64,000 bases of DNA from an uncultured Ectothiorhodospiraceae bacterium (GTDB lineage Bacteria; Pseudomonadota; Gammaproteobacteria; SZUA-152): the NCBI GenBank assembly GCA_964401355.1, contig CAYNYJ010000005.1, positions 4,361-68,360 on the forward strand, written 5' to 3'. The notes beneath the pieces are model-generated. The model worked only from the letters and a program-made list of their open reading frames with translations, did not search any database and was not told the DNA's origin. Position 1 is the first letter of the stretch. Every line of letters begins with the position of its first letter. Made by a program: the position numbers and the translations under genes. Positions 31 to 50,716 of this stretch are shown piece after piece.

Positions 31-735
31 TCATGACATGCTGTCAAGCACACGCCGCACCAGCAACAAACCGCAGCCGAAGGCCTTGGAGCGACCTATA
101 CCATTCATCAATGCCTGTTGGAATAAATCGGCATCTTCCACAGTGAGCAACCCAGCATAGTCCAGCGTGCTGTAACGAATGGGGGTTCCTCGTGTATTTT
201 TAACAGCCCGATGCTGGTCGTAACCTTCAACACCAACGTCTCCCTTCCGAAAGGAAAAACCGTTTTTTTCGGCACGTGATTGTAACCATGCCAGCCCCGC
301 TTCTTCGATGATATTTGTCAGTGGTGTCCGTTCAGATATCGACAATTTTTTATACCCCGTGCGATGTTTGAGGTCCATCACCACATCGTGTCGATGCTGT
401 CGGCCGCTTTCATCCCGGCGCGTGACTACGGGGTTAGCCCGCAAGGTGAATGCCAAACGCTGACCCCTGAGAATAACCGGTCGATACTCTTTGGTTTCAA
501 TCTGCCAGACTCCATCGTCGTGTTGCGGCAACCGGTCGGACAACAGGTAAAAACGTGGAAAACCACCATTGGACTTTTCACGCCGAAACAGAAAGTCACG
601 TTTGGCATCGGGATCAGTTTCAAACAAGCGCCACAAATGTTGATGTTCACGATAACCGTTGGCGCACATTTCCTGCGCCAGTCGATTGGCATTGACGCTA
701 TTTGGATCAATGGATACACGACTGAAATAATTCAT
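31..735 (-). CDS. cas6e: CRISPR endoribonuclease Cas6e (CasE/Cse3), type I-E
   Basis: 234-aa ORF with motifs LWRLF..ARDFLFR, FRLRANP and C-terminal GIGRSKAFGCGLL typical of Cas6e. It is last in the cas3-cse1-cse2-cas7-cas5-cas6e order and overlaps the cas5 stop by 4 nt. Confidence 0.8.
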   Translation of the reverse strand: MNYFSRVSIDPNSVNANRLAQEMCANGYREHQHLWRLFETDPDAKRDFLFRREKSNGGFPRFYLLSDRLPQHDDGVWQIETKEYRPVILRGQRLAFTLRANPVVTRRDESGRQHRHDVVMDLKHRTGYKKLSISERTPLTNIIEEAGLAWLQSRAEKNGFSFRKGDVGVEGYDQHRAVKNTRGTPIRYSTLDYAGLLTVEDADLFQQALMNGIGRSKAFGCGLLLVRRVLDSMS

Positions 736-1469
736 CCCTGCGCCTCCGTCACGGTTTCCGAAAAATAGAATTCATCCCGTTCCGCAAACTGCCACCGCGC
801 CCGGCTCAATGACTGGTCGCGGCGCGGATACACCATGCTGGCCGACATACCTGCACTGTCATCCGTCAGTTGTTCCCAGTAGTAACCGCGTTGTGCGGTT
901 GGCTTGATCGGTAACAGCAGTTCGTCCTCGGGAAAACTAACGTCATCAAACGCCGACTTAAGACTCGTCGCATCTAACAACTGCGGACACAGCGGCAATG
1001 CCAGCGGGCAGGCTTTGCGCCCAAGATATAATTGCAATTGCGGATGCAGCAATGCCGCTTTTATATCTGTTAACGAATAAGGTGCCACATCATTTCCAAT
1101 CCACAGCGCAACCACATAACGTGCATCCATGCGGTAATCACGTGACGAAAGAATGGTGTTGAGTTCGGGGTTTCGCAATTCATCACGACGAGTAAAGAAC
1201 ACCGCCTTGCCCTTGGCTGGAGGAACTTGCGTGGTGTGGTAGTCGCGCAGCAATTCGCCCGGGGCATCGACACGCACACCGAACCCATACCCGGCAGTTA
1301 TATCGCGATGCACAGCTTCTTCATCACGGCGAATGCCTTTGGCCGCCGCCAGCAAACCTAGAATCGCAGACTTGGAGGGATGATTCGCGGTCGGGCGCTG
1401 TTCACCCACGGCCACATTTCCCCAAGAGGCCATCGGCCCGTAGAGTTGAAATAATAGAAATTGCCTCAT
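732..1469 (-). CDS. cas5: Cascade subunit Cas5e (CasD)
   Basis: The ORF track starts at 1613 and would overlap cas7. The internal Met at 1469 gives MRQFLLFQLYGPMASWG, the canonical Cas5e N-terminus, 4 nt after the cas7 stop. Confidence 0.8.
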   Translation of the reverse strand: MRQFLLFQLYGPMASWGNVAVGEQRPTANHPSKSAILGLLAAAKGIRRDEEAVHRDITAGYGFGVRVDAPGELLRDYHTTQVPPAKGKAVFFTRRDELRNPELNTILSSRDYRMDARYVVALWIGNDVAPYSLTDIKAALLHPQLQLYLGRKACPLALPLCPQLLDATSLKSAFDDVSFPEDELLLPIKPTAQRGYYWEQLTDDSAGMSASMVYPRRDQSLSRARWQFAERDEFYFSETVTEAQG

Positions 1470-1473
1470 GGCC

Positions 1474-2511
1474 CTATTCCGCTGTCGCGGCATTGATGAT
1501 ATTTGCCAGACTACCTTGACCACCTTGCACGTCCATCGTGATTCGCGCGTCCGCACAGGGACCGTAAGCGTTATCCATTTTTTCCACGGCATCTTCGAGA
1601 CTGGCGGTCGCACTGCTTAACATGTCCGTGCCTGCAATCGGTTTCAAAAAAGCAGCCGCCAACGAACGAGGTTGCTGGTTGCCAGTTTCACACAATACAT
1701 ACGAGGCACGCGCACGTGAGGCAAAACTGTTTTGTTTGCCCGTGGGTGCAACCGTCGTCGCCGCTTCAATCAATGCAGCAAGGGTTTTATTGGTCAGCTC
1801 AGCATCATCACCCAGGTTTTCTTTTAACAGCGCACGATCAATACAGATGTACTGGTAAAACAGACCCGCAGCAAATTCCGTTTCGCCCATGTGTCCCGCA
1901 CCCAGATCTTCTTCACCCGTGTTCAGGTCATCCACCGCAGTAAAAAAATCATCTTCCACCGTGACTTTGTGAACGCTGATCGCATGGGCAACCTGACAGG
2001 CGGCTTCGGTATTAAAAGCAGGGCTGGAAGCCAACATGCGACCGAACAAGGCAATATCCGCCGCGCTATGTTGCTTGCGCAGAAGTTTCAATTCATCGGC
2101 TTCCGGTTCACTACCGCGTTCGGCCAGTATCGTGATCAATTCATTAATGGCGGTTTCTTCTTCCGGGCTGAAATGGGCTAACTGTTCAATATCCACCGAA
2201 TCTTTTTTTAGCTTGCCAAACACAGCGGCAATGGACTTGGCCCAGTCGGTGGCCTTTTTTTCTGCAACGCCTTTTTCGACCAGTGATTTAAAAATTTTCT
2301 GCCCCATTGATTTAGTGCGTGTACCCACGTGGCCTTTAAGTGCATTTTCGAAAACTTCAGATTTTCGCCAGGCGCGTTTAAGACTTTGAGAGGAAACACG
2401 CAGGCGTGGCACGCCACCCATCATCGCGGTTTTAGGCCGACCCAGATCATCACGATTAAGATTAGCGGGCGGATACGAGGTCAACAAATGCAGTTGAATG
2501 AAACGACTCAT
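1474..2511 (-). CDS. cas7: Cascade backbone subunit Cas7e (CasC)
   Basis: 345 aa. The N-terminus MSRFIQLHLLTSYPPANLNRDDLGRPK is the hallmark CasC start. An AAGGAG SD lies upstream. Confidence 0.9.
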   Translation of the reverse strand: MSRFIQLHLLTSYPPANLNRDDLGRPKTAMMGGVPRLRVSSQSLKRAWRKSEVFENALKGHVGTRTKSMGQKIFKSLVEKGVAEKKATDWAKSIAAVFGKLKKDSVDIEQLAHFSPEEETAINELITILAERGSEPEADELKLLRKQHSAADIALFGRMLASSPAFNTEAACQVAHAISVHKVTVEDDFFTAVDDLNTGEEDLGAGHMGETEFAAGLFYQYICIDRALLKENLGDDAELTNKTLAALIEAATTVAPTGKQNSFASRARASYVLCETGNQQPRSLAAAFLKPIAGTDMLSSATASLEDAVEKMDNAYGPCADARITMDVQGGQGSLANIINAATAE

Positions 2512-2568
2512 GGGTATTTCTCCTTGTCAGAAAGTTATTTTATTTAGAGACTTTAAAAAACACATTAT

Positions 2569-2641
2569 CGTCATTCTGGCGTAGGCCAGAACCCAGTAGC
2601 CAGCCAATCCCCCCTGGACTCCGGCCTACGCCGGAGTGACG
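2569..2641. repeat. REP-like imperfect palindrome (cgtcattctggcgtaggcc ... ggcctacgccggagtgacg) inside the Cascade operon
   Basis: Two inverted arms of about 19 nt (17/19 matches) flank about 35 nt in the unusually long 155-bp cse2-cas7 intergenic spacer. It shares the ccggcctacgccgg core with the dispersed MITE family in this window. Confidence 0.5.
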
Positions 2642-2665
2642 AAAAAATAATCAGTTAATACTTTG

Positions 2666-3160
2666 TTAAGCAGATTTCTTTTCAGGCACATTTGGAAAGT
2701 AATCGAAGGCCCAGCGTTTTCGTTCACCATCGCCCCAGTAATAAACCGACTGAGCCAAATCAAATGGGTTCGCTTTTTTATCCATCAAACCCAATACACG
2801 AATCAATGCACCATATAAATCCCGGCGATCGCGTTGCAATAAACGGCGAAAACGTAGCTCGCTTACAACAGGCGGATCGCCTGCCATTTGCCCTGCCAGT
2901 GTCTTGCGTGAATCAAGTGTACGAACATGAGCCAGCAATCCGGCAATCGCGGCGATGCGCATTTCCCAGCCGTCCCGCTCATCTTTCATCAATGGCCGAA
3001 CACTATTACACAGGCGATGAAAGGCCGACACCATCACCACTTCATCCGGTGATTTACAGCGGCGTAACTGCGCACGTCCGCCCTTGTCTTGCTCAAGGTT
3101 TTGCCAGAATTTACTGAGTTCCTTACCTAGAGGGGAATCAGAATCAAATTTCTTGCTCAT
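2666..3160 (-). CDS. cse2: Cascade small subunit Cse2 (CasB)
   Basis: 164-aa ORF between cse1 and cas7. Size and position fit Cse2. Its 3' end overlaps the cse1 stop by 4 nt. Confidence 0.75.
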   Translation of the reverse strand: MSKKFDSDSPLGKELSKFWQNLEQDKGGRAQLRRCKSPDEVVMVSAFHRLCNSVRPLMKDERDGWEMRIAAIAGLLAHVRTLDSRKTLAGQMAGDPPVVSELRFRRLLQRDRRDLYGALIRVLGLMDKKANPFDLAQSVYYWGDGERKRWAFDYFPNVPEKKSA

Positions 3161-4761
3161 GCCGTTTTCTCCTTTTTGTCGGGTAACTGCAATAACTTTT
3201 TCATTTTTTTCGAATACAACAAATTGCGCAATTTGCGATGAGCCATAGCAATGCGGCGCGGATTTGTTACTGACACATCCCCACGCGCCGCCCAGTAGTC
3301 GAACAATGCCATCGCTGCTTTCACTAACTCGCTATGCCAGGAATTCAACACGGCAATGCCATCTCCTCCGGATTCAAGTTCATCGCGCAACTGCTGCGAA
3401 GCATGAAAGAAACTGTTTTCTGTATGCTGAAAAAAGGCCTCGATAATAAATGAGGTATCGCCTTTGGCATCACCCGGTCGCTTGAACCAGGCATCTTTCA
3501 CTGTGCTGCGCACAAACCCCGAAACCTCTATCGCCGCAGTTACCAGCGACTGCGCACGCTCGATAAAAATGGTTCGAATATTTTCGTCCAAGAAATAAAG
3601 GGGATAGGTAGTTTCGTACCAGCAACGAGCTTTCATGTTGTCCATGTCATAACCAAAGGCCCACAGTCGCAGTTGCAGTATTTTCTCTGGGTTACGTTTA
3701 TTGAAAGCGGTGATCACCCGAGCTGCATCACCTAACTCCTCATCAGCAAGAAAACGTAACCAGTGACGGTAACTCATGCCGCCCGGTTGCGGATGCCGGG
3801 GAATAGGCGTGTTGTCTTTTTTATCAAAACTATGCGGACTCAGCGGATGCTTCCACGGGCCGTTGTAATTGACACCGTAGTTTTGGGTGACGTATTGCGA
3901 CACCAGTCGGTCGCTTTCCACGCCGCAAATATCGCATTCACCCTCGCGGGCATTTTCCCAGTCCAGCCGAATCCGGCGCGGCATGGCCCAGTACATTTGC
4001 AGCGGGTTCACGTCAGCAGGGTAGGTATCTCGTCCACCGTGTTTGGAATCACTGCTACGAGTCGCCGCCATCCACGGAAAAATATCTTCGTCGGTTTGTT
4101 TGTCCGCACCATCAGTCAACGACTCGAAATCGCGGCGGCGCAGCACGTTCAGCCAGACATTGCGCCACAGGGTTTCGGGCAAGCCAGCACTATCCTGTGA
4201 GTCCACGATAGCCAAAGTCGTCAACGGCCCACCGCCCCGCAACGAAGTACGATGCCCTGCCCCGCCACTGGGGGCGTTGGTCTGCAACGTGAACAATGCG
4301 CTGGCAGCGCAAACCGGACACAACACTTCCACGCCGCCACGCTTGATAAAATGATCCGCATTATTACGCAGAGTGTTGGCACCCGGGGATTCAATTAACA
4401 GAGCATCGATAGGCTTGGTATCGCCTTGCAGTTCATCAAAATCCTGCATAAAGCGCGGGCCGTCATTGTCCAAATTAAAGGCATGTTGCAAGGGCATAAA
4501 TTTTTCTTTCAGGATATTGGGGGACGGTGCCGTTTCCAGCCAGGTTAACCAGTCTTCATTTCTTGCGTCTTCCGGCGGCATGGCCGTCTGCAACAGACCA
4601 ATGAGGAATTGCATCAGCGCGCCATTGAAATCCGCTCGCGGTGCATTCAGCGCAACGATGGGGTTATCTTCGTGGCCATCGGTTATCTGCCAGGGGGCGA
4701 TCATTTCCTTCGTCCCGCTGGCGCGACGGACTGACAACCAATTAACTGTGATTAGATCCAT
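3157..4761 (-). CDS. cse1: Cascade large subunit Cse1 (CasA/Cas8e)
   Basis: The ORF track starts at 4845. The internal Met at 4761 gives MDLITVNWLSVRR, which resembles the E. coli CasA start MNLLIDNWIPVR. About 534 aa. Confidence 0.8.
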   Translation of the reverse strand: MDLITVNWLSVRRASGTKEMIAPWQITDGHEDNPIVALNAPRADFNGALMQFLIGLLQTAMPPEDARNEDWLTWLETAPSPNILKEKFMPLQHAFNLDNDGPRFMQDFDELQGDTKPIDALLIESPGANTLRNNADHFIKRGGVEVLCPVCAASALFTLQTNAPSGGAGHRTSLRGGGPLTTLAIVDSQDSAGLPETLWRNVWLNVLRRRDFESLTDGADKQTDEDIFPWMAATRSSDSKHGGRDTYPADVNPLQMYWAMPRRIRLDWENAREGECDICGVESDRLVSQYVTQNYGVNYNGPWKHPLSPHSFDKKDNTPIPRHPQPGGMSYRHWLRFLADEELGDAARVITAFNKRNPEKILQLRLWAFGYDMDNMKARCWYETTYPLYFLDENIRTIFIERAQSLVTAAIEVSGFVRSTVKDAWFKRPGDAKGDTSFIIEAFFQHTENSFFHASQQLRDELESGGDGIAVLNSWHSELVKAAMALFDYWAARGDVSVTNPRRIAMAHRKLRNLLYSKKMKKLLQLPDKKEKTA

Positions 4762-4939
4762 CTGTCTTTTCTCCCTGCGCTTGATATATGGGATCGTTAA
4801 CTGCCTCCGTAGCCTGCCATTCAAGCACAATAAAAGTACCGTCATCTAATTCGACCCGCCCCAAACTTCCCCTGCGCCGCATTTCTAAAATCAGCTGCTC
4901 AGGGCGTGATAAAAAATGGGTTGCCAATATTTCTAACAT
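4742..4939 (-). CDS. hypothetical 65-aa protein, first cistron of the Cascade operon; candidate CreT-like toxin or unknown small Cas-associated protein
   Basis: ATG preceded by a perfect AGGAGG SD with 5-nt spacing. The ORF overlaps the cse1 start codon by 20 nt, an arrangement consistent with translational coupling. I recognise no family. It lies directly downstream of the psi-spacer target site. Confidence 0.45.
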   Translation of the reverse strand: MLEILATHFLSRPEQLILEMRRRGSLGRVELDDGTFIVLEWQATEAVNDPIYQAQGEKTDGSNHS

Positions 4940-4998
4940 TACCGCCTCCTAATTCCACGATCATCCAGATGCCGCCACAGGGGTGAAACAATAATTGC

Positions 4999-5023
4999 AA
5001 GTATATATGGAAATATTTTTGAA
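4999..5023 (+). promoter_or_regulatory. AAG PAM (4999-5001) plus 22-nt partial protospacer matching the psi-spacer; putative Cascade operator over the small-ORF/Cascade promoter
   Basis: Target aag|tatatatggaaatatttttgaa versus psi-spacer tatatatggaagtatttggaac. The 11 PAM-proximal nt match exactly, and 17 of 22 match overall. It abuts a candidate extended -10 (TGcAATTAT, minus strand, 4991-4999) for the small ORF. Confidence 0.45.
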
Positions 5024-5042
5024 GCGTGTTGTGTTTATTTCA

Positions 5043-5051
5043 TGTTAAAAT
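5043..5051 (+). promoter_or_regulatory. candidate extended -10 (TGtTAAAAT) for the creR/creA-like RNA
   Basis: A TGnTAAAAT motif lies 4 nt upstream of psi-repeat 1, so a transcript would start at or just before the mini-array. Called from sequence only. Confidence 0.3.
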
Positions 5052-5054
5052 TTT

Positions 5055-5134
5055 AACTTCCCCTTCGAGAAGGGGATGAACCATATATATGGAAGTATTT
5101 GGAACCCGTTCCCCACACCCGTGGGGTTTGTACA
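5055..5134 (+). ncRNA. CRISPR-like mini-array psiR1-psiS-psiR2 (creA/creR-like crRNA-resembling RNA)
   Basis: psiR1 (5055-5083) AACTTCCCCTTCGAGAAGGGGATGAACCA versus the I-E consensus GAGTTCCCCGCGCCAGCGGGGATAAACCG. The TTCCCC/GGGG stem and the AT(G/A)AACC 5'-handle are conserved. The psi-spacer is 22 nt (5084-5105). psiR2 (5106-5134) CCGTTCCCCACACCCGTGGGGTTTGTACA keeps the hairpin with a degenerate 3' end. Its orientation matches the transcribed sense of I-E repeats. Confidence 0.5.
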
Positions 5135-5152
5135 GGGGCTAACGCCCCTGTA
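5131..5152 (+). terminator. perfect 9-bp-stem hairpin tacaggggc-taac-gcccctgta spanning the cas3 stop codon
   Basis: A palindrome followed by CTTCTTCTTCTTCC on the plus strand. It may terminate the creR-like RNA. The cas3 stop codon (cta, 5139-5141) sits in the loop. Confidence 0.3.
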
Positions 5153-7922
5153 CTTCTTCTTCTTCCTTCATCAAACCTATTTCCGGGCTGTAATAAAATG
5201 CCATCGTTGCACCGTCCTTGCTGAGCGCCATTCCTTTCCACAAACCATCGTCAACGGCCACCAATGGCAACAACACTCCCCACTTGCCTTTGGCGGGTAG
5301 CCGTTCGCGGCAGGTTTCGATTATCTCGGCAGTGATATTTTCAGTGGCTGCCTCACTGGCGATCAGGTCGCACCGCATTTGCACGGCGCTACGTGGCCAG
5401 GCGTGATCAATTTCGTTGATCCAGGGTTCCAGGTTTTTTCCATTCCAGCGGGCAAGATAGACGGTGGTGGTTTCCACTTCGGCGAGTCGGGTCGGTGTCT
5501 TTGTCTCATCCCACCAGCGGTTTTCATCTTCGCCGTTATAGCCGTCTGCAATATTCAGCGTGTTGAGTGCGCCCAAACTGCCACTGGCACTGGCGCGTCC
5601 TTCTGCTTCCATTGAGGCTGCATCCAGGGCCGGTGGATATTCTGTGCAGGCGTAGACGCCTTCGATCAAGCGACGGGCATCGTCGGGCATGCGGAAACCG
5701 CCGCGTTTTTTAAGCAGATGGGCAGTGCGCCAAATTTGCCCATGATGGGGGTAAACATAACTGGTGCCCTTTAAATAATCCTTGAACCAATTGGCGCTGA
5801 CATCACCGCCCGGGTCGGGGCCATTGACGACCAGCACGGGCTCGCCGCGCTCACCACGCTGATGACGGTGCAAACGCCCGGCACGCTGGATGATAAGGTC
5901 GACGGGTGCGAGGTCGGTGATCAGCAAATCAAAATCGAGATCCAGGGATTGCTCTACGACCTGGGTGGCGATGAGTACCTGTCCCCGGCGCTCGTCAGCG
6001 GTACTTTTCGGGCCGAAACGTTTGACGATGCGATTTTCAATATCCAGCCGATCCTGCATGGCGTAGCGGGCATGGAACAAATCAATAGGCCAATCCGGGT
6101 GCTGGGCGCGCAAATGGTCGAAGGATTCACGGGCATCGCCAACAGTATTGCGTATCCAGCAGGCGCACTGCCCGGTATTAACAGCAGCTACCAACCGATT
6201 TTCGACATCCGCAAGCCCATGCACCATTTCCACTCTGACTTTACGACGCACACTGTCACGGGTGGCCACTGTTGTTTCATCAAGATTTTCTGAATGCACA
6301 CGGGTGAACAGTGGATAGTCATCTTCACCCGTTTTGTTCAATTCTCGATTAGCCCAGCCTGCTCCCTTGGCAAAGGCATTGACCAGCTGTTGGCGTTGTT
6401 TGGTGGGCAAGGTTGCGGAAAGTAGAATGGCACTGCCGCCACTGGCGGCATGGGCTTGCAACAGATCGCGCAACAGGCGATTCATGTAGTCATCACAGGC
6501 ATGGACTTCATCCACCACCAATAACTTACCGAGCAAACCCAACAAGCGAAGAGACTGATGGCGCGACGGCAATATGGCCATCAACGCCTGATCAATAGTG
6601 CCCACACCGACTTCCGCCAGCAGTGCCTTCTTTCGGTTATCCGCCAGCCAAGCACCGCAATGACTGCCTGCGGTTTCGGTGTTGTCGCCATAGTCTGATT
6701 TCTCAGTTGTTGTGATGGCGGTTACCGACGACATAATCGCTTGTCGGAAATTTGCCGAAAGATCGCGTGCTCCGTGAGCCAGTACCAACGAAGGTTTAAT
6801 GTCTCCCTGAAATAAACGTTGATAAACTTTGGCCATGCGGTCATACATGGCATTGGCAGTGGCCATGGTGGGCAACCCAAAATAGAAGCCCTGTGAATTC
6901 CCGGCCGCCATCATGCGATGCACCAGCATCAGCGCCGCCTCGGTCTTTCCTGCGCCGGTCACGTCTTCGAGGATAAATAACTGCGGGCCTGCTGGCAGAG
7001 GTAGCTGTTCACAATAGGCTTGCAAAGGTGTCGGCGTGAATATTGAAGTTGCTGTTGGTGAAAATAGGTCTTGAAAACTCATGCTACCGGCAACTTGTGA
7101 TGGCAAAAGCTCTGTGGCGGAAATAGCAGTCTCTGCGCGTGAAAGGGCTATTTGCCAATAATCAGGAAGCGATTGTGTACTGTCTGTAAAGGGAAAATAA
7201 TCGGTATTGGAACCCAGCCAATCACACAACACTGCAAATCCGGCCAGCCACCAAGACGCCGTCTGGCTTATCTCAAGAGCGGGTTGTGGAAATGGCGTTG
7301 CGGGCGGCAAAAGCAAGCTCGCAACATCGGCAACAAATTCACGAGCAGCGTCAACATCCTGGGGCTCGAAATAATCACGGCACATTCCTTCCGGTTTGGG
7401 TGGCACACCGTGATGACCAATCATGGCCTGCATCCAGTATTCCAGGCCTGTGGGCAGATTGCCGGTAAGCAAACCACCCGACCTTTGTTTTGACAATAAA
7501 CCCAGCTGACGAAAGCGCTTACGTAGATGATCTTGCCAAAGCATGAATCCCAGATTGTCATGTCGCGGAGAATCACTGCATGCCCGGTCTCGTTGTTGCA
7601 ACGCCCCAAACAGATCAGGCCGAAGGTTTTGAAAACTGGCAGAAAATTTTCCAATGTCATGTAAAGTTAAGAAAAAGGGCAACCAGTCTAAAAGCTCCAC
7701 CGCCTCCAGCCCTGTCAATCGCACCAAGGACTCGCGCAAGTGGTGGTGCCTTCTCAACAACACGACCCCAACCGCCGCCACATCCAAGCAGTGAAACGGC
7801 AACAGATGATAAGGGGCACCGTCTTCATCCGTCTTCCGGGCCTTGCCCCAATAACGAAAATAACGGGCCTTTTTGTCGGTAGCTGTATTTGCGGGAACGT
7901 CCATATTCCTTTGTTTTAACAT
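5139..7922 (-). CDS. cas3: Cas3 HD nuclease/helicase, type I-E
   Basis: 927 aa with an N-terminal HD domain (LHDIGKFSASFQ) and a Walker A motif (GAGKTEAAL). Confidence 0.9.
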   Translation of the reverse strand: MLKQRNMDVPANTATDKKARYFRYWGKARKTDEDGAPYHLLPFHCLDVAAVGVVLLRRHHHLRESLVRLTGLEAVELLDWLPFFLTLHDIGKFSASFQNLRPDLFGALQQRDRACSDSPRHDNLGFMLWQDHLRKRFRQLGLLSKQRSGGLLTGNLPTGLEYWMQAMIGHHGVPPKPEGMCRDYFEPQDVDAAREFVADVASLLLPPATPFPQPALEISQTASWWLAGFAVLCDWLGSNTDYFPFTDSTQSLPDYWQIALSRAETAISATELLPSQVAGSMSFQDLFSPTATSIFTPTPLQAYCEQLPLPAGPQLFILEDVTGAGKTEAALMLVHRMMAAGNSQGFYFGLPTMATANAMYDRMAKVYQRLFQGDIKPSLVLAHGARDLSANFRQAIMSSVTAITTTEKSDYGDNTETAGSHCGAWLADNRKKALLAEVGVGTIDQALMAILPSRHQSLRLLGLLGKLLVVDEVHACDDYMNRLLRDLLQAHAASGGSAILLSATLPTKQRQQLVNAFAKGAGWANRELNKTGEDDYPLFTRVHSENLDETTVATRDSVRRKVRVEMVHGLADVENRLVAAVNTGQCACWIRNTVGDARESFDHLRAQHPDWPIDLFHARYAMQDRLDIENRIVKRFGPKSTADERRGQVLIATQVVEQSLDLDFDLLITDLAPVDLIIQRAGRLHRHQRGERGEPVLVVNGPDPGGDVSANWFKDYLKGTSYVYPHHGQIWRTAHLLKKRGGFRMPDDARRLIEGVYACTEYPPALDAASMEAEGRASASGSLGALNTLNIADGYNGEDENRWWDETKTPTRLAEVETTTVYLARWNGKNLEPWINEIDHAWPRSAVQMRCDLIASEAATENITAEIIETCRERLPAKGKWGVLLPLVAVDDGLWKGMALSKDGATMAFYYSPEIGLMKEEEEVQGR

Positions 7923-8076
7923 TCCAGTTCAGTCAAAACAAACGGAATCTATTTATAGTCGTCGAGGACTGCACTCGGGTTTTTACGGGCGATATATTTC
8001 AGATCAATGCAGCCTCTAACCTGGACTGTTTGCTGTGAGCTTTGATTTCCAACACACATCGACGGGCGCTTCGCGC

Positions 8077-8825: not shown

Positions 8826-9173
8826 ATGACGATTTTTGTGAAAAACATTTTTAAGACCACCATTTTTAAGACCACCATTGTTAAAAACTTGTTAATAGCT
8901 GCGGTTTTATTCATGACCGGCTTAACGACCCCCATATTGGCCGCCGACCGCGTCCCCGATGCTGAACAGGGCAAGGTGTTACACGAGAAGAATTGTATGG
9001 AATGCCACGACAATCGCCAGTACACGCGGCCCAATCGCATCATCCATACCTTTGAGGATCTGCATGCCCGGGTGGAGTTTTGCGACACTGCCTCAAATGC
9101 CGGCTTTTCCTTTAATGACATTGATGACGTGGTGGAATACCTCAACGTCAATTTTTATAAATTTATAAAGTAA
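8826..9173 (+). CDS. small monohaem c-type cytochrome (putative)
   Basis: Signal-like N-terminus and a single CMECH (CxxCH) haem-binding motif. The start codon is uncertain. Confidence 0.45.
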   Translation: MTIFVKNIFKTTIFKTTIVKNLLIAAVLFMTGLTTPILAADRVPDAEQGKVLHEKNCMECHDNRQYTRPNRIIHTFEDLHARVEFCDTASNAGFSFNDIDDVVEYLNVNFYKFIK

Positions 9174-9204
9174 ATCTAAACGAAATTTTCTAAAGGCAAT
9201 ACGC

Positions 9205-10753: not shown

Positions 10754-10841
10754 CGCGTATCCTGTACCCAAGCGGCATTGAGACACCACGATACTTGTGA
10801 TGTGCATCACGCGGCACTGAAATGGATTTTAGTAAAATGAT

Positions 10842-11091
10842 CAGTGCTGCCCCGTTAACTCTTTGTTCGTCATGCTGGCGAAGGCCGGCATCCAGAAAGT
10901 CGTTGCACCACCAAAAGTAGGCGCTCTTAGGCGAAAGTAAGCGCTCTTAGGCGACCACTGAATTCCGACCTACGCCGGAATGACGGGAAGGGGTTGTCTA
11001 GGTTCATGTCTCCAATACTACTGAATGCGCTATACACCAAGTGTGCTGCCAGTTGCAGCAGAACAAGATCCAAGTTAACGGGACAGCACTG
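10842..11091. mobile_element. MITE-like repeat, copy A (TIR CAGTGCTGTCCCGTTAAC)
   Basis: A 250-bp element bounded by 18-bp terminal inverted repeats. It is about 90% identical to copy B at 13476-13726. Confidence 0.6.
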
Positions 11092-11137
11092 TAAAATGGG
11101 ATATACACACGAAAATAGCCACTGGGAAACTGTGAAG

Positions 11138-11866
11138 ATGCCGATGATCAAACATCAGGGAAAAAACATTATTGTCGCATTGGCCGTCAGCTTCACGCTG
11201 CTGCCTTGTGCCTTCGCGGCCAACATCGACAACGTCGGCAGCCTGTTACAGCCTGAATTTAAAGACCTCACCGCCGATCTGGGCGCAGCACTCAGCTACA
11301 AGGCGATTCGCCCTGCCGAACCCATGGGCAGCTTGGGCTTCGACATCGGCTTCGAAATCACCAGCACCAAAATGGAAAGCAACGCGCTGGAACTGGCCAC
11401 CTCGGGCAATGCCCCCAGCCAGCTGCTGGTTCCCAAGTTGCACATCAGCAAAGGCCTGCCGTTTGGTTTCGATATCGGTGCGTTTTACACTTCCGTGCCT
11501 TCCAGCAACATTGGCCTGATCGGCGGTGAACTCAGTTATGCCCTCTACGAGGGCGGCACCTTCAGCCCCGCCGTGTCCATTCGCGGCACCTTTTCGCGGC
11601 TCACTGGCGTGGATCAGCTGAACTTGACCACCAAGGGACTGGAACTCTCTATTTCCAAAGGTTTTGCCTTTTTCACACCCTACGCCGGCATCGGCCAAGT
11701 GTGGATCGACAGTGACACCAATACCGGGCTGGAAGACGAGAGCCTCACCAAAAGCAAATATTTTCTCGGGATTAACTTCAATCTAGGTTTGATTAATTTT
11801 GCCGCAGAAACGGAACAGACCGGCGATAACACCTCGACCAGCGCCAAAATCGGCGTCCGCTTTTAA
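11138..11866 (+). CDS. putative outer-membrane beta-barrel protein
   Basis: The ORF track starts at 10994, inside the MITE. The Met at 11138 gives signal peptide MPMIKHQGKNIIVALAVSFTLLPCAFA. The protein has alternating amphipathic strands and a C-terminal Phe. Confidence 0.55.
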   Translation: MPMIKHQGKNIIVALAVSFTLLPCAFAANIDNVGSLLQPEFKDLTADLGAALSYKAIRPAEPMGSLGFDIGFEITSTKMESNALELATSGNAPSQLLVPKLHISKGLPFGFDIGAFYTSVPSSNIGLIGGELSYALYEGGTFSPAVSIRGTFSRLTGVDQLNLTTKGLELSISKGFAFFTPYAGIGQVWIDSDTNTGLEDESLTKSKYFLGINFNLGLINFAAETEQTGDNTSTSAKIGVRF

Positions 11867-12744: not shown

Positions 12745-13371
12745 TTAAAGAAACAATGATTCACCACTGGCAAGACGTTGGGACACGACGTACTGAAACT
12801 CTTTGGGCCCAAAAGCAAACCACTGTTGCTGACGCTCATAGATAAATGGACGCATGTTTTTAGTGGAATATTCATGATACCAGTCCAGCAACTTTTTGCT
12901 CGGGTCCTTACCCGCAGACACCAGCACATCCACCGGGCGGCCTGCCCAACTGACACGCCCCGATAAAACAATAATGCCGCTCTGACTCGGCTTCATCCAG
13001 TCAGGCAAATCACTTTCGGGTTCTGCCCAGCCACAAAAGAATATCCGGCAAGGATCCTCCGGACGAGTCTCGTGAATGGTGCAATTCTGCCCGGAACTAA
13101 AGGGACAGGGCTTATTCAGGTCGATGTCATGATCCAGAACGCGTGTCTTGACCCAACCGTCGCAACAGAGTGAGCAGTCGCCACAGGGGCGAGCCGGCTG
13201 AGTCGATGAAGGCTTGGGCTGGCGCGCGGGCCGGAGAGAATAACTGGCCTGCTGTGAGGCAGTGGCCGTGGCATTATTTTCCACGGCACTATTTGTCACA
13301 GCACCATGGCATTTTTTAAATTTTCTACCACTGCCACAAGGACAGGGGTCATTTCGACCAGGCTTCGTCAT
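12745..13371 (-). CDS. SEC-C motif plus CxxCxxCC (UPF0153/YkgJ-like) metal-binding protein
   Basis: N-terminal [15 protein letters not shown] (SEC-C) and a CGDCSLCC cysteine cluster. Confidence 0.55.
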
Positions 13372-13475
13372 AAGTTAAATACCGTCAAAAAAATCACCTC
13401 AGTAACACCCGATTAACCACAACCAACATCGTCAGTTTTTTAAAAATCCAGTATTCAGAGTTTTATCCGTGCAGT

Positions 13476-13726
13476 GCAGTGCTGTCCCGTTAACTCTTTG
13501 TTCGTCATGCTGGCGAAGGCCGGCATCCAGAAAGTCGTCGCACCACCAAAAGTAGGCGCTCTTAGGCGAAAGTAGGCACTCCCAGGCGACCACTGGATTC
13601 CGGCCTACGCCGGAATGACAGGAGGGGGTTGTCTAGGTTCATGTCTCCAATACTACTGAATGCGCTATACACCAAGTGTGCTGCCAGTCGCAGCAGAGCA
13701 AGATTCAAGTTAACGGGACAGCACTG
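13476..13726. mobile_element. MITE-like repeat, copy B
   Basis: Same TIRs and internal sequence as copy A. Confidence 0.6.
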
Positions 13727-13818
13727 TTATCCGTGTTAAAAAAATAAACTCCAGATTCCAGTTGGCCTCTGAAGCGTTATCCGCAGCCCTTGATCACGTT
13801 ATGACACGGCCACGTATT

Positions 13819-21259: not shown

Positions 21260-21700
21260 TTAGCCTGCCGCCGCCTCGCTTGCCGCCAAACCCCGCGCAG
21301 CCTCGATGAGTTCGGCATTACTCCGCCTAAGCACTTCATCGTGCTTCGCCAGGGCATTGGATTTTTGCGCCAGACTCTCCGCCATGCCGTACTGCCCCTG
21401 CTGCAAACGAATCTTCGCCAGCCGATGCCAGAGCCGTGCATTACGGGGCTCGATGCGCAGCGCCCGTTCCAGCAGAGCCGCGGCCCGCTCCCAGTGGGCC
21501 TGATATTCCTGCTGCTCGGCCTTGGCTAACAAGGTGGCCACAGCACGACCGACATCGGGCGTGACACCCATCGCCGAAGGTGGATCCGTAACGGCTGAAT
21601 CGGTGGCACAGCCAATCATCGAAAGACTGGCGATGAGTATCATCAGCGCACCGACTAATTCACCGATTCGTTGGTATCGCATTATTTTCATATTCTGCAT
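21260..21700 (-). CDS. TPR-repeat lipoprotein (putative)
   Basis: Lipobox LSMIGC and TPR-like helices (RALRIEPRNARLWHRLAKIRLQQGQY). Confidence 0.5.
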   Translation of the reverse strand: MQNMKIMRYQRIGELVGALMILIASLSMIGCATDSAVTDPPSAMGVTPDVGRAVATLLAKAEQQEYQAHWERAAALLERALRIEPRNARLWHRLAKIRLQQGQYGMAESLAQKSNALAKHDEVLRRSNAELIEAARGLAASEAAAG

Positions 21701-21735
21701 TTCACTGCTGTTCTGTTAACCAATACATGTCATGT

Positions 21736-21933
21736 TGTAATAAATTGTTTTGCGTGACCTGTCGTGTGATTTGAAAAATTGAGGGACGCATTCTCAGCAA
21801 CCTATCCCGTCAGAGCCTACCCCGCGTAGCGTTTTGGGTATTCCGACGAAGACCGGAATCCAGTGATTTCAACGACGTTCTGGATACCGGCCTGCGCCGG
21901 TATGACGAATAAAAAGTTAACGGGACAACAGTC
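21736..21933. mobile_element. MITE-family variant, copy C (inverted, partial)
   Basis: It shares about 200 bp with copy D, including ttgttttgcgtg..cgtagcgttttgggtattccg and the terminal gttaacgggacaacagtc. Confidence 0.45.
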
Positions 21934-22014
21934 TCTGCATTTATCATTTCTTACAACTCAAAAACTTTTTACTGGGAGAACGGGTACTCAAAAAAATAGC
22001 CCTCAAAAAAAGTG

Positions 22015-28678: not shown

Positions 28679-29539
28679 ATGCCCCTGGCCATCGCAATCG
28701 CGGGCCAGGAAAGTGCCGCGGAACTGACACAGTTGCACGCGCTCGTGCGGCAACTGAATCTGCCAATATGTGATTTGTCGGGGCTTGAATCCAAACCCCA
28801 GTCTAAATATAAAACCTGTCAGTCTTTTCGCTTTACCCTGTCATTTATTAGCGGTGAATCGCAGGCTGATCATTCTGACCGTCTGACAAACAACGCGACA
28901 AAAATGCTCGCGCTCTCCAGCATGCAGAATGAATTCAAGAGCAGCGTACACATCGACTTCCTGCACGGCAAACTCGCCCACCGACGCGAATTCGGCGGCG
29001 GACGCGGACAAGCCCTGGCCAAAGCCATCGGCCTGAAACACGGCGCCAACCCCAGCGTCATCGACGCCACCGCCGGGCTGGGCCGCGATGCCTTCGTGCT
29101 CGCCCACCTCGGCGCACACGTCACCATGATCGAACGCTCGCCCATATTGGCCGCCCTGCTCAATGACGGATTGCAGCGCCTGGCCATCAACACCGAACCA
29201 CCGGGCAGCGACACGATTCAATTGCAACTGATCCAGGCCAACGCCATCGACTGGTTACCGCGACAGGCAAAGGACAACAACAGACCGGAAGTGGTGTACC
29301 TCGACCCCATGTACCCCCACCGCAGCAAAAGCGCCCTGGTCAAAAAAGAAATGCGAGCCCTGCGCGCCTTGGTGGGTGACGACGAGGATTCCGCCCTGCT
29401 ATTGCAAGCGGCACGACACTGTGCCCTGAAACGGGTGGTGGTAAAACGGCCCAAAGGGGCACCATTGATTGATGACAGCAAGCCCAGCGGCAACGTGCAA
29501 TCAAAGAATACGCGCTACGATATCTACCCGGTGTTTTAA
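28679..29539 (+). CDS. rsmJ: 16S rRNA m2G1516 methyltransferase RsmJ
   Basis: AHRREFGGGRGQALAKAIG, DATAGLGRDAFVLA and VYLDPMYPHRSKSALVKKEMR closely match E. coli RsmJ. Confidence 0.8.
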   Translation: MPLAIAIAGQESAAELTQLHALVRQLNLPICDLSGLESKPQSKYKTCQSFRFTLSFISGESQADHSDRLTNNATKMLALSSMQNEFKSSVHIDFLHGKLAHRREFGGGRGQALAKAIGLKHGANPSVIDATAGLGRDAFVLAHLGAHVTMIERSPILAALLNDGLQRLAINTEPPGSDTIQLQLIQANAIDWLPRQAKDNNRPEVVYLDPMYPHRSKSALVKKEMRALRALVGDDEDSALLLQAARHCALKRVVVKRPKGAPLIDDSKPSGNVQSKNTRYDIYPVF

Positions 29540-29734
29540 TAACGCACAACATCATTTGACGCATCGACAAGAGCAGCCATTGACCCGCCCCCGGACGTGA
29601 ATAACGCACAAGCAGTGAACAACACCCTCGGTCAGAAGGCTGAATGGGTTATTGATCAACAAGACTCCTTGTTTATTACCGTCATTCTGCGCAGTACACC
29701 ACTCCCCTGATTGCCCTGGAGTGATTCCCAAGTG

Positions 29735-30007
29735 CCCTTGAGTCATTTCTTAGTGCCCCGGAACGATTTCTTAGTGCCCTTAGGTCATTTCTTAGTCACC
29801 TTGAGCCATTTCTTAGTGCCCTTAGGTCATTTCTTAGTCACCTGGAACGATTTCTTAGTGTCCTTAGATCATTTTTTAGTGACCTGGAATGATTTCTTAG
29901 TGCCCTTAGGTCATTTTTTAGTGACCTGGAACAATTTCTTAATGCCCCTGGGTCATTTCCCAACCACACAGAACGATTTCCGAGTGCCCCTGAACCCTTT
30001 CCGAACC
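29735..30007. repeat. 13 x 21-bp tandem repeat (conserved core ATTTCTTAGTG plus 10-nt variable half) with an alternating 42-bp higher-order period
   Basis: The units are contiguous with no spacers. Two variable-half classes (cccttaggtc and acctggaacg) alternate, producing recurring AGGTCA-N8-TGACCT palindromes. Confidence 0.8.
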
Positions 30008-30215
30008 GCGTAGGATAGGCACGTTTTTCGTACCTACCCTAAAAAACCTCCCAAGCGAATGCATTCCTTCCTTCCCGGCAGATATTAATCGTTACATACT
30101 ACCCAGTCGCCTGAAAAGGATACTGCTTCTTTTTAAAATCCCGGTATGACGGTGGATTTAAGTAACATGAGTAGTATTCATTATTAGTGACTTGTTAGTA
30201 AGTATTTGCACATAG

Positions 30216-30284: not shown

Positions 30285-30540
30285 ATAAAACACATGTCAA
30301 TATTTATGCAACAATTAATAGTTATGGATTGTCGCGTGTGTTTACCGGAAGATTCAACGGGACCGATAAGCGCCGATGAACATTCACGGTATTTCAGTGC
30401 AGGGTTCTACCCCACGTTGGGGTAATTCCACATTCAATATACGGCACCCACTGATATCCCGATTCAAAAAAACATCCCTACCTACGGGCCATCCGATTGA
30501 ATGTAAATATTTTCACTGCCGTCCCATTAACAAATGCTTG

Positions 30541-30794
30541 CTATGTTGTAATTCGTTGTTTTGCGTGGCCTACAACGTGATTTGTGGAATTAAGACATGA
30601 ATAACCAGCAACCTCTCCCATCACAGCCTGCCCTGCGTAGCGTTTTGGGTATTCCGGCGAAATGCCGGAATCCAGTGGTCGCCTCAGAGCGCCTACTTTC
30701 GCCTAAGAGCGCCTACTTTTGGTGGTGGTTCAACGACCTCCTGAATACCGGTCTGCGCCGGTATGACGGATATAAAGTTAACGGGACAGCAGTG
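30541..30794. mobile_element. MITE-family variant, copy D (inverted relative to copies A and B)
   Basis: It ends in gttaacgggacagcagtg. The internal part is the reverse complement of the left half of copies A and B. Confidence 0.5.
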
Positions 30795-30839
30795 GTTAAA
30801 AATAATAGAATCAGAAGTAACAAACCAAGGGCACTCGCA

Positions 30840-31196
30840 ATGACCATTGATGACATCATTACCCAAATAAAAACTCAAGCTGGCAACGTCAACTTTCAGG
30901 ACGTGATTGATTGCATTGATAAATATTTTGACTACACACCTGTTCATTTCACCAATGGCCAAGGACACGATGTCGTGATGAATCAAGCGGGTAGCAATGA
31001 AGGCTCATGCAAGATATTTTCTTTCGCAACACTGGAAGGTTTTAGTGAAGTAGAGACGCTCGCCTGCTTTGGCCAGTATTATCGGCAGGATGTGTTACTG
31101 CAGCCGACGGGCACCGACCACGCCAACATCCGCGCCTTCATGCGCCACGGTTGGTGCGGCATCCGCTTTGAACAATCGGCATTGCACAAGCGCTAG
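30840..31196 (+). CDS. HopJ-family (type III effector HopJ1-like) protein
   Basis: The ORF track starts at 30597, inside the MITE. The Met at 30840 is preferred. About 118 aa, with NEGSCKIFSFA...LACFGQYYRQDV...GTDHANIRAFMRHGW matching the HopJ family. Confidence 0.65.
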   Translation: MTIDDIITQIKTQAGNVNFQDVIDCIDKYFDYTPVHFTNGQGHDVVMNQAGSNEGSCKIFSFATLEGFSEVETLACFGQYYRQDVLLQPTGTDHANIRAFMRHGWCGIRFEQSALHKR

Positions 31197-50417: not shown

Positions 50418-50500
50418 GCAGGAACAGGGTTTAAACCTGTGACCTTACAGCGGTTACGCCTAAAAAGCCAAGCCTGAACCTCAGACACTCCACACATACC
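50418..50500 (-). pseudogene. decayed tRNA-fMet copy 1 (3'-half remnant TAAGGTCACAGGTTTAAACCCTGTTCCTGC)
   Basis: A diverged T-arm/acceptor remnant and a degenerate 5' half. No CCA end and no acceptor pairing. Confidence 0.5.
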
Positions 50501-50525
50501 ATTCTCTACAAAACCAGTATTCGGT

Positions 50526-50613
50526 TGGTAGCGGGGACAGGATTTGAACCTGTGACCTTCAGCGGCTGCGCCGGTAAAAGCCGAGCCCGACCCTCGGGCG
50601 CTCCACACATACC
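50526..50613 (-). pseudogene. decayed tRNA-fMet copy 2 (intact 35-nt 3' half, mutated 5' half)
   Basis: The 3' half GAAGGTCACAGGTTCAAATCCTGTCCCCGCTACCA is identical to the functional gene. The 5' half retains only GTGGAGC and TCGGGCTC islands, and the acceptor stem is lost. Confidence 0.55.
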
Positions 50614-50639
50614 ATTTCTCTACAAAACCAGTATTCGGT

Positions 50640-50716
<77 letters not shown>

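Follow-up and report, generated by a model that had tools for sequence, protein, structure and literature searches.

The window analysed here, a 64-kb stretch of DNA (64,000 nucleotides) from an uncultured Ectothiorhodospiraceae bacterium, contains four dispersed repeats with common ends, which raises the question of what these repeats are and which enzyme moved them. The original prediction, made from the letters of the window, described a dispersed four-copy family of MITE-like elements with 18-bp terminal inverted repeats (TIRs). The four repeats are very probably MITE copies mobilised in trans by a DDE transposase that belongs to an insertion sequence (IS) of the IS4 family with the same 18-bp ends. 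The copies, designated c1 to c4, are located as follows:

10842-11091, plus strand: MITE c1, 250 bp, with TIRs at 10842-10859 (1 mismatch) and 11074-11091
13477-13726, plus strand: MITE c2, 250 bp, with TIRs at 13477-13494 and 13709-13726
21703-21933, minus strand: MITE c3, 231 bp, inverted relative to c1
30514-30794, minus strand: MITE c4, 281 bp, inverted, with 2-3 mismatches in the left TIR

The 18-bp inverted repeat CA(G/C)TGCTGTCCCGTTAAC delimits all four copies, with zero to three mismatches. The CAGTGCTGTCCCGTTAAC 18-mer is found at eight sites in the window that form four inward-facing pairs (three or fewer mismatches), compared to 0.04 in dinucleotide-preserving shuffles, none of which (0 of 100) reaches eight sites, and the predicted four-copy family with 18-bp TIRs is thereby upheld. 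No additional whole or solo copies were found in the 64-kb window, which leaves the copy count at four in 64 kb. The two copies predicted to be near-identical, c1 and c2, are both 250 bp in length and exhibit 94.8% identity, differing at 13 of 250 positions. The c3 and c4 copies lie in the opposite orientation to c1 and c2 and are diverged in sequence, with about 77-89% identity to each other in pieces and 83-86% identity to c1 and c2 over 60-144 bp. The coordinates first given for c1 are correct, while c2 begins at 13477 rather than one base earlier at 13476; the existence and inversion of c3 and c4 were also read correctly, with starts (about 21736 and 30541) placed about 30 bp too far in. 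The description of some copies as mosaic is borne out by internal blocks of 20, 28 and 42 bp by which the copies differ. The same ends recur consistently well outside the window, in at least 220 stretches of public genomes and metagenomes.

The sequence immediately flanking these elements is duplicated. The flanking 9-mers match at 8 or more of 9 positions in 84 of 120 elements fetched from genomes and metagenomes outside the window, compared to the next 9 bp outward, where a control of 53 elements from the genome-collection subset produced one pair with 7 of 9 positions alike and none higher. A+T makes up 75% of the duplicated sites, in which position 1 is preferentially A and position 9 preferentially T. 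Within the window, c3 is flanked by a perfect (9/9) duplication of TCTGCATTT at 21694-21702 and 21934-21942, and c2 by a perfect (9/9) duplication of TTATCCGTG at 13463-13471 and 13727-13735. The flanks of c1, TAAAATGAT (10833-10841) and TAAAATGGG (11092-11100), are alike at 7 of 9 positions, and no target duplication was found in the flanks of c4. The TTAA-like duplication that the original prediction suggested looking for is therefore ruled out by the AT-rich 9-bp duplications, which favour A as the first base and T as the last.

Because c4 has no duplication, the c1 flanks match at only 7 of 9 positions and c2 carries five extra bases, the window copies are not pristine, and they may be old or rearranged. 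The extra bases of c2 (CAGTG, 13472-13476) are situated between the left duplication and the TIR and are identical to the five bases with which the element begins. One guess is that they are the product of aberrant end-joining or hairpin resolution.

Related loci were chosen for comparison that encode an RsgA 82-84% identical to that of the window and retain its gene order. In these relatives, syntenic stretches of up to 21 kb are free of TIRs. At the position of c3, the relative L120 contains a single ACTGCATTT between the PBP1B and TPR genes, which are 27 bp apart, compared to 314 bp in the window. Removal of c3 and one of its duplicates allows the window to align across the L120 junction, and the entire 231 bp of c3 is missing from this empty site. 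At the position of c1, the intergenic region of the relatives is 160-176 bp in length compared to 384 bp in the window. For c1, the intergenic DNA has diverged too far to allow an unambiguous empty-site alignment, and the size difference alone is clear. The c2 copy lies within a segment of about 4 kb (encoding a SEC-C protein, a LysR protein and a porin) that is missing from the relatives. For c4 there is no empty-site comparison, since synteny with the relatives stops at 29539 (rsmJ) and c4 is located just beyond this point; a rearrangement involving c4 would fit its missing duplication. Of the four window copies, two lie within or border on segments that the relatives lack.

Two further features were observed at these loci. 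TIR-like strings are present at the sites orthologous to c1 in L118 (CAGTGATGCACCAATC, at about 7140-7160, a 16-mer) and L116 (AGTGGCCGTTAAAGAG, at about 7150-7175), and these could be due to chance or could be footprints of an older, lost insertion. A minisatellite at 29712-29989, with a period of 21/42 bp (roughly 12 repeats of a 21-bp unit; at period 42, matches reach 87%), is situated between rsmJ and c4, exactly where synteny ends. It fills a 100-aa "ORF" (29711-30013) that has no Pfam hit.

The window itself offers no enzyme for such movement, as predicted: a tblastn search with the cognate transposase described below did not find a counterpart (best E = 2). The non-autonomous reading of the elements also holds, as they are short, TIR-bounded, dispersed and intergenic, with no transposase in the window. 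A search for a cognate IS elsewhere was successful. Among the matches listed, the termini pair at two spacings, either 63-443 bp (114 elements, including c1-c4) or 1268-1276 bp (12 elements). The 12 longer elements, from other genomes and metagenomes, feature identical 18-bp ends and one intact ORF encoding 383 aa. Both end variants, CACTG and CAGTG, occur on the ISs and the short elements alike, and the two kinds of element also have their boundary and the 9-bp length of the duplication in common (e.g. L001, ATTTGAACT). The characteristics of a MITE are thus present in this family, namely short elements without a transposase, TIRs, a fixed-length duplication, termini shared with an IS and, for c3, a filled site that can be compared to an empty one.

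The 383-aa product matches the Pfam domains DUF4372 in its N-terminal part and DDE_Tnp_1 (PF01609, E = 8e-32), and scores 265 bits against the NCBIfam model NF033592 (IS4 family transposase), for which the cut-off is 115. The Y-x2-R-x3-E-x6-K signature can be read directly from the protein as YKARWQVELFFKWIK. A single ORF, a length within about 1.2-1.6 kb and a duplication of about 9 bp also agree with the IS4 family.

The nearest named IS is ISAbe18, an IS4-family element of 1,269 bp from Acinetobacter, with 49.5% amino acid identity. ISAbe18 resembles the partner IS in size (1268-1276 bp for the latter) and in its single ORF of about 383 aa with DUF4372 and DDE_Tnp_1 domains. Its ends are related (CACTGCTGTCCCATAG) and begin with CACTGCTGTCCC as in the partner IS, but the two part after position 12, where the partner IS has GTTAAC and ISAbe18 has ATAGTT. 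ISAbe18 is flanked by a 9-10-bp repeat, compared to the 9-bp duplication of the partner IS. The hosts also differ, since the partner IS is found in uncultured marine and sediment Gammaproteobacteria, and ISAbe18 is a full IS, whereas the window elements are non-autonomous derivatives. The ISfinder convention places elements in the same IS or as isoforms at more than 95% DNA or 98% amino acid identity. The possibility that the partner is ISAbe18 itself or an isoform is excluded by the 49.5% identity, and by sequence comparison the partner is an element related to ISAbe18 but distinct from it. ISAbe18 has been found to transpose experimentally in the laboratory (PMC8552602).

A scan of a genome collection with CASTGCTGTCCCGTTAAC, using one genome per species, identified at least 112 stretches, and a scan of metagenomes with the CAGTG variant added 111 further stretches. 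Among the genome-collection matches listed, nearly all hosts are uncultured Gammaproteobacteria, including Sedimenticola, Thiohalobacter, Thiodiazotropha, Halieaceae, Poriferihabitaceae, Sulfuriflexus and others. The family is widespread in uncultured marine and sediment Gammaproteobacteria, symbiont lineages included. One of the few listed matches outside the Gammaproteobacteria is a Nitrospirales MAG (L074), in which two different IS4-family transposase genes adjoin (5275-6423 and 6912-8000); their products are 39% and 79% identical to the transposase of L036.

In the proposed mechanism, the 383-aa transposase, with its DUF4372 and DDE_Tnp_1 domains, would recognise CA(C/G)TGCTGTCCCGTTAAC at both ends of an element, excise it and insert it into a staggered 9-bp cut, the repair of which would produce the 9-bp direct duplication. 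AT-rich A-N7-T sites would be preferred, and it is proposed that copies land in promoter-proximal intergenic DNA because of this preference. The interior of the MITE is not derived from the IS. Tn5 and Tn10 encode characterised IS4-family transposases that act by cut-and-paste, and the same chemistry is probable here by analogy. This mechanistic analogy is drawn purely from family membership, since the transposase exhibits no sequence match to the solved structures of the PDB. An autonomous copy is presumably present in this organism, or was in the past.

Another origin for the short elements would be the decay of full-length ISs in situ, each copy being the wreck that is left after an interior deletion. 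Such derivatives exist within the family, as the 353-bp element L094 is clearly a deletion derivative with about 70% identity to the 3' part of the IS. With the exception of L094, the short elements and the IS are alike over only about 18-35 bp at each end. Local alignment of the c1-c4 interiors to the IS interiors gave no similarity above that of shuffled sequence, c1 and c2 have a common 250-bp structure at two different loci, and many metagenomes contain elements of this architecture that are flanked by other 9-bp duplications. Decay in place is consequently an extremely unlikely origin for the four copies. A resemblance of c3 and c4 to the start of the transposase (ATGTCATGTTGTAAT) was also considered and rejected as not significant, the alignments being no better than those of shuffles.

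Mobilisation in trans of elements with their own interior remains the preferred reading, and the anatomy of these interiors can be described in some detail. Several subfamilies use the common ends, as is evident from the discrete size classes of the short elements (160, 204, 213, 227-236, 246 and 300 bp). The frame of the window subfamily is composed of a TIR (18 nt), 8 nt, module A (28 nt), a 16-nt spacer, an inverted module B (28 nt), a conserved arm of about 88 bp and the second TIR (18 nt). This frame corresponds to the 204-bp class in metagenomes, in which the arm is 85-91% identical to that of c1 and c2. The frame can be extended by optional blocks, namely up to two 20-nt units, a 28-bp block or a 42-bp block. 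Two 20-nt units (AAAGTAGGCGCTCTTAGGCG) are located between the modules of c1 and c2, where other copies have one or none, and the unit of this minisatellite reads AAAGTA(A/G)GCGCTCTTAGGCG in the c1 core. Both c3 and c4 contain an added 28-bp block after module B, and c4 also contains two 20-nt units. The internal parts of the four copies, together with a free module pair found elsewhere in the window, are located as follows:

10868-10985, no strand assigned: c1 core, with module A at 10868-10895 (plus), 20-nt units at 10914-10954 and module B at 10958-10985 (minus)
13503-13530, 13549-13589 and 13593-13620: c2 core, laid out as in c1
21836-21907: c3 module pair, with a good match at 21880-21907 (minus) and a degenerate module at 21836-21863 (plus), 16 nt apart
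30741-30768 (minus): c4 module, with a degenerate partner at about 30651-30678 and 20-nt units at 30679-30719
2569-2641: free module pair, 2569-2596 (plus) and 2614-2641 (minus), without IS4-type termini, within the type I-E cas operon with cas7 immediately downstream

In four elements from other sources (L127, L130 at 8946-9191, L139 and L208), the segment between the modules is inverted relative to the other copies, which suggests flips through recombination across the inverted modules.

Bacterial MITEs and mobile insertion cassettes are short elements with IS-type TIRs, a fixed-length duplication and an interior unrelated to the IS, and they are presumed or have been shown to be mobilised in trans. 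For MIC231 of Bacillus cereus, an IS of the IS4 family, IS231, reportedly shares only its ends with a short cassette. The present elements differ from MIC231-type cassettes in their termini, in their hosts and in an interior composed of NTS/SRM-like hairpins and a 20-nt minisatellite. The BrickBuilt MITE of Porphyromonas gingivalis also combines IS-like ends with an internal minisatellite of variable copy number, but differs in having IS5-like ends, irregular duplications and a sequence unrelated to that of the window elements (PMC4596501). MITEs with ends borrowed from an IS are of a known kind, and the unusual detail here is the pair of hairpin motifs. No description of this MITE family was found in the literature, and a search with the TIR sequence did not return a relevant paper.

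The two hairpin modules have the 28-nt consensus CGTCATTCCGGCGnAGGCCGGAATCCAG and occur as an inverted pair in the window subfamily. This consensus is equal to the Neisseria Transformation Sequence (NTS, CGTCATTCCCGCGMAVGCGGGAATCYRG) except for a compensated change in the stem from CCC/GGG to CCG/CGG, and the modules have the layout of the NTS, namely 28 nt with oriented flanks and a hairpin. The ssDNA-specific GIY-YIG nuclease SsnA recognises the NTS, and a degenerate "Ssn-related motif" (SRM) described together with the NTS is found across bacteria (PMC11893778). The published SRM pattern has six matches in the window compared to 0.43 in shuffles, four of which are inside the MITEs, the other two being the free inverted pair at 2569-2641. 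On the basis of this resemblance, the modules are filed as NTS/SRM-like. Free modules, single or paired, are also present in other genomes.

The modules open the possibility that the repeats are clusters of REP/BIME, REPIN or NTS-type hairpins spread by a RAYT or a GIY-YIG enzyme of the Ssn type, with the common ends being incidental. The sixfold occurrence of the SRM pattern and the existence of free pairs, in the window and in other genomes, agree with such a system. The boundaries of the elements, their 9-bp duplications and ends identical to those of a DDE-type IS instead point to DDE transposition, and among the matches listed the modules are present in 36 of 114 short elements and absent from the remaining 78. 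Moreover, at the c3 empty site the full 231 bp is missing and not the hairpins alone. Searches of the window and of 1.65 Mb of fetched loci yielded neither a RAYT-like nor a GIY-YIG-like ORF (for the ssn type, cd10448, by tblastn and motif scan), a weak negative that covers 64 kb of this genome. Spread by such an enzyme is considered very improbable. A REPIN/REP-RAYT system proper, in which repeats flank a RAYT gene and no duplication is made, was rejected on account of the 9-bp duplications and, as a weak test, the absence of RAYT-like sequence.

With transposition by the DDE enzyme as the preferred reading, the modules are passengers whose presence differs from the situation of NTS/SRM and dRS3 in Neisseria, as the motif here rides inside a DDE-type MITE in a gammaproteobacterial host. 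The embedded modules extend the range of a motif so far tied to the control of transformation in Neisseria, and they suggest that carriage by a MITE is one way in which NTS/SRM-like motifs can spread. It is conceivable, at a low probability, that the MITE acts as a vehicle for Ssn-related hairpins or, conversely, that a mobile hairpin pair has colonised the MITE. In either case, a single element would join two repeat systems that are unrelated to each other. On the former reading, a DDE-mobilised carrier would seed recognition sites for an ssDNA nuclease beside genes. Sites seeded in this manner would shape where incoming or replicating ssDNA is cut, with consequences for recombination and the control of horizontal transfer. 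No literature was found that joins Ssn motifs or NTS/SRM hairpins with MITEs.

The operon that contains the free module pair is a type I-E CRISPR-Cas operon on the minus strand (31-7922). It encodes Cas3 (5139-7922), Cse1 (3157-4845), Cas7/CT1975 (1474-2511), Cas5 (732-1613) and a Cas6e-like protein (31-735), with the hairpin pair positioned between the cse2 region and cas7. No CRISPR array was seen in the window.

The surroundings of the four copies agree with the claim that they are intergenic and lie just upstream of genes, as a start codon is found 2-105 bp downstream of each (4/4). The c1 copy is located 88 bp past the rsgA stop codon and 46 bp upstream of the ATG at 11138 of a gene encoding a secreted-looking protein of 242 aa. 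The c2 copy is situated between a minus-strand gene with a SEC-C motif, which starts at 13371 (105 bp away), and the stop codon of a LysR gene (13819). The c3 copy lies between the stop codon of PBP1B (22015) and a minus-strand TPR-protein gene whose ATG is at 21700 (2 bp away), and c4 is 45 bp upstream of the hopJ ATG (30840). The hopJ label given to the last of these genes is confirmed by a Pfam match to HopJ; the outer-membrane beta-barrel label given to the gene after c1 is not confirmed, since its product has no Pfam hit.

Several over-long ORFs had been suspected to be artefacts of reading into the elements, and two such cases are evident. The ORF at 10994-11866 (290 aa) starts within c1, compared to a gene call of 242 aa from 11138 on a matching JGI metagenome contig (3300033050, Ga0348266_1000352), and the ORF at 30597-31196 (199 aa) starts within c4, with the HopJ domain identified by Pfam from residue 85 onward. 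Masking of the elements clears these spurious N-terminal extensions along with spurious antisense ORFs.

The position of all four copies 2-105 bp upstream of a start codon is also what would be expected if they were regulatory or structured-RNA elements of the host, such as a small RNA, an attenuator or a terminator, kept for their function. Copies fold far better than shuffles (z = -4.0 and -3.3), and at c3 and c4 a -35-like TTAAC(A/G) hexamer in the TIR (TTAACA/TTAACG) is paired with a -10-like hexamer in the flank, facing the TPR and hopJ genes. The strong folds follow by construction from the inverted ends and the inverted module pair. No Rfam match was found at gathering score or at E of 1 or below, with the exception of a chance snoRNA hit; simple scans of the copies identified no terminator-like sites, and promoter-like sites are not more frequent than in shuffles. 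The relatives have the same genes without the elements. Retention for a host function is thus extremely improbable as the explanation of the family, and the hybrid TIR/flank promoters at c3 and c4 are candidate sites that provide a lead only.

As transposed MITE copies, the elements may still affect the genes next to them. On the gene strand, the 9-bp duplication that flanks c3 reads AAATGCAGA and includes the conserved ATG of the TPR gene, so that the ribosome-binding region of this gene now consists of MITE sequence. This parallels ISAbe18, which has been caught inserting within a start codon with gene expression retained (PMC8552602). Since insertion takes place a few to about 100 bp from start codons, the family is likely to give rise to differences in expression between close strains and to rearrangements among them.

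A separate repeat was observed elsewhere in the window, where a 114-bp unit present in 2.2 copies (50424-50716) overlaps the 3' part of a tRNA-Met gene (50640-50716, minus strand). These repeats look like duplicated tRNA ends from an integrating element, that is, att-site scars.
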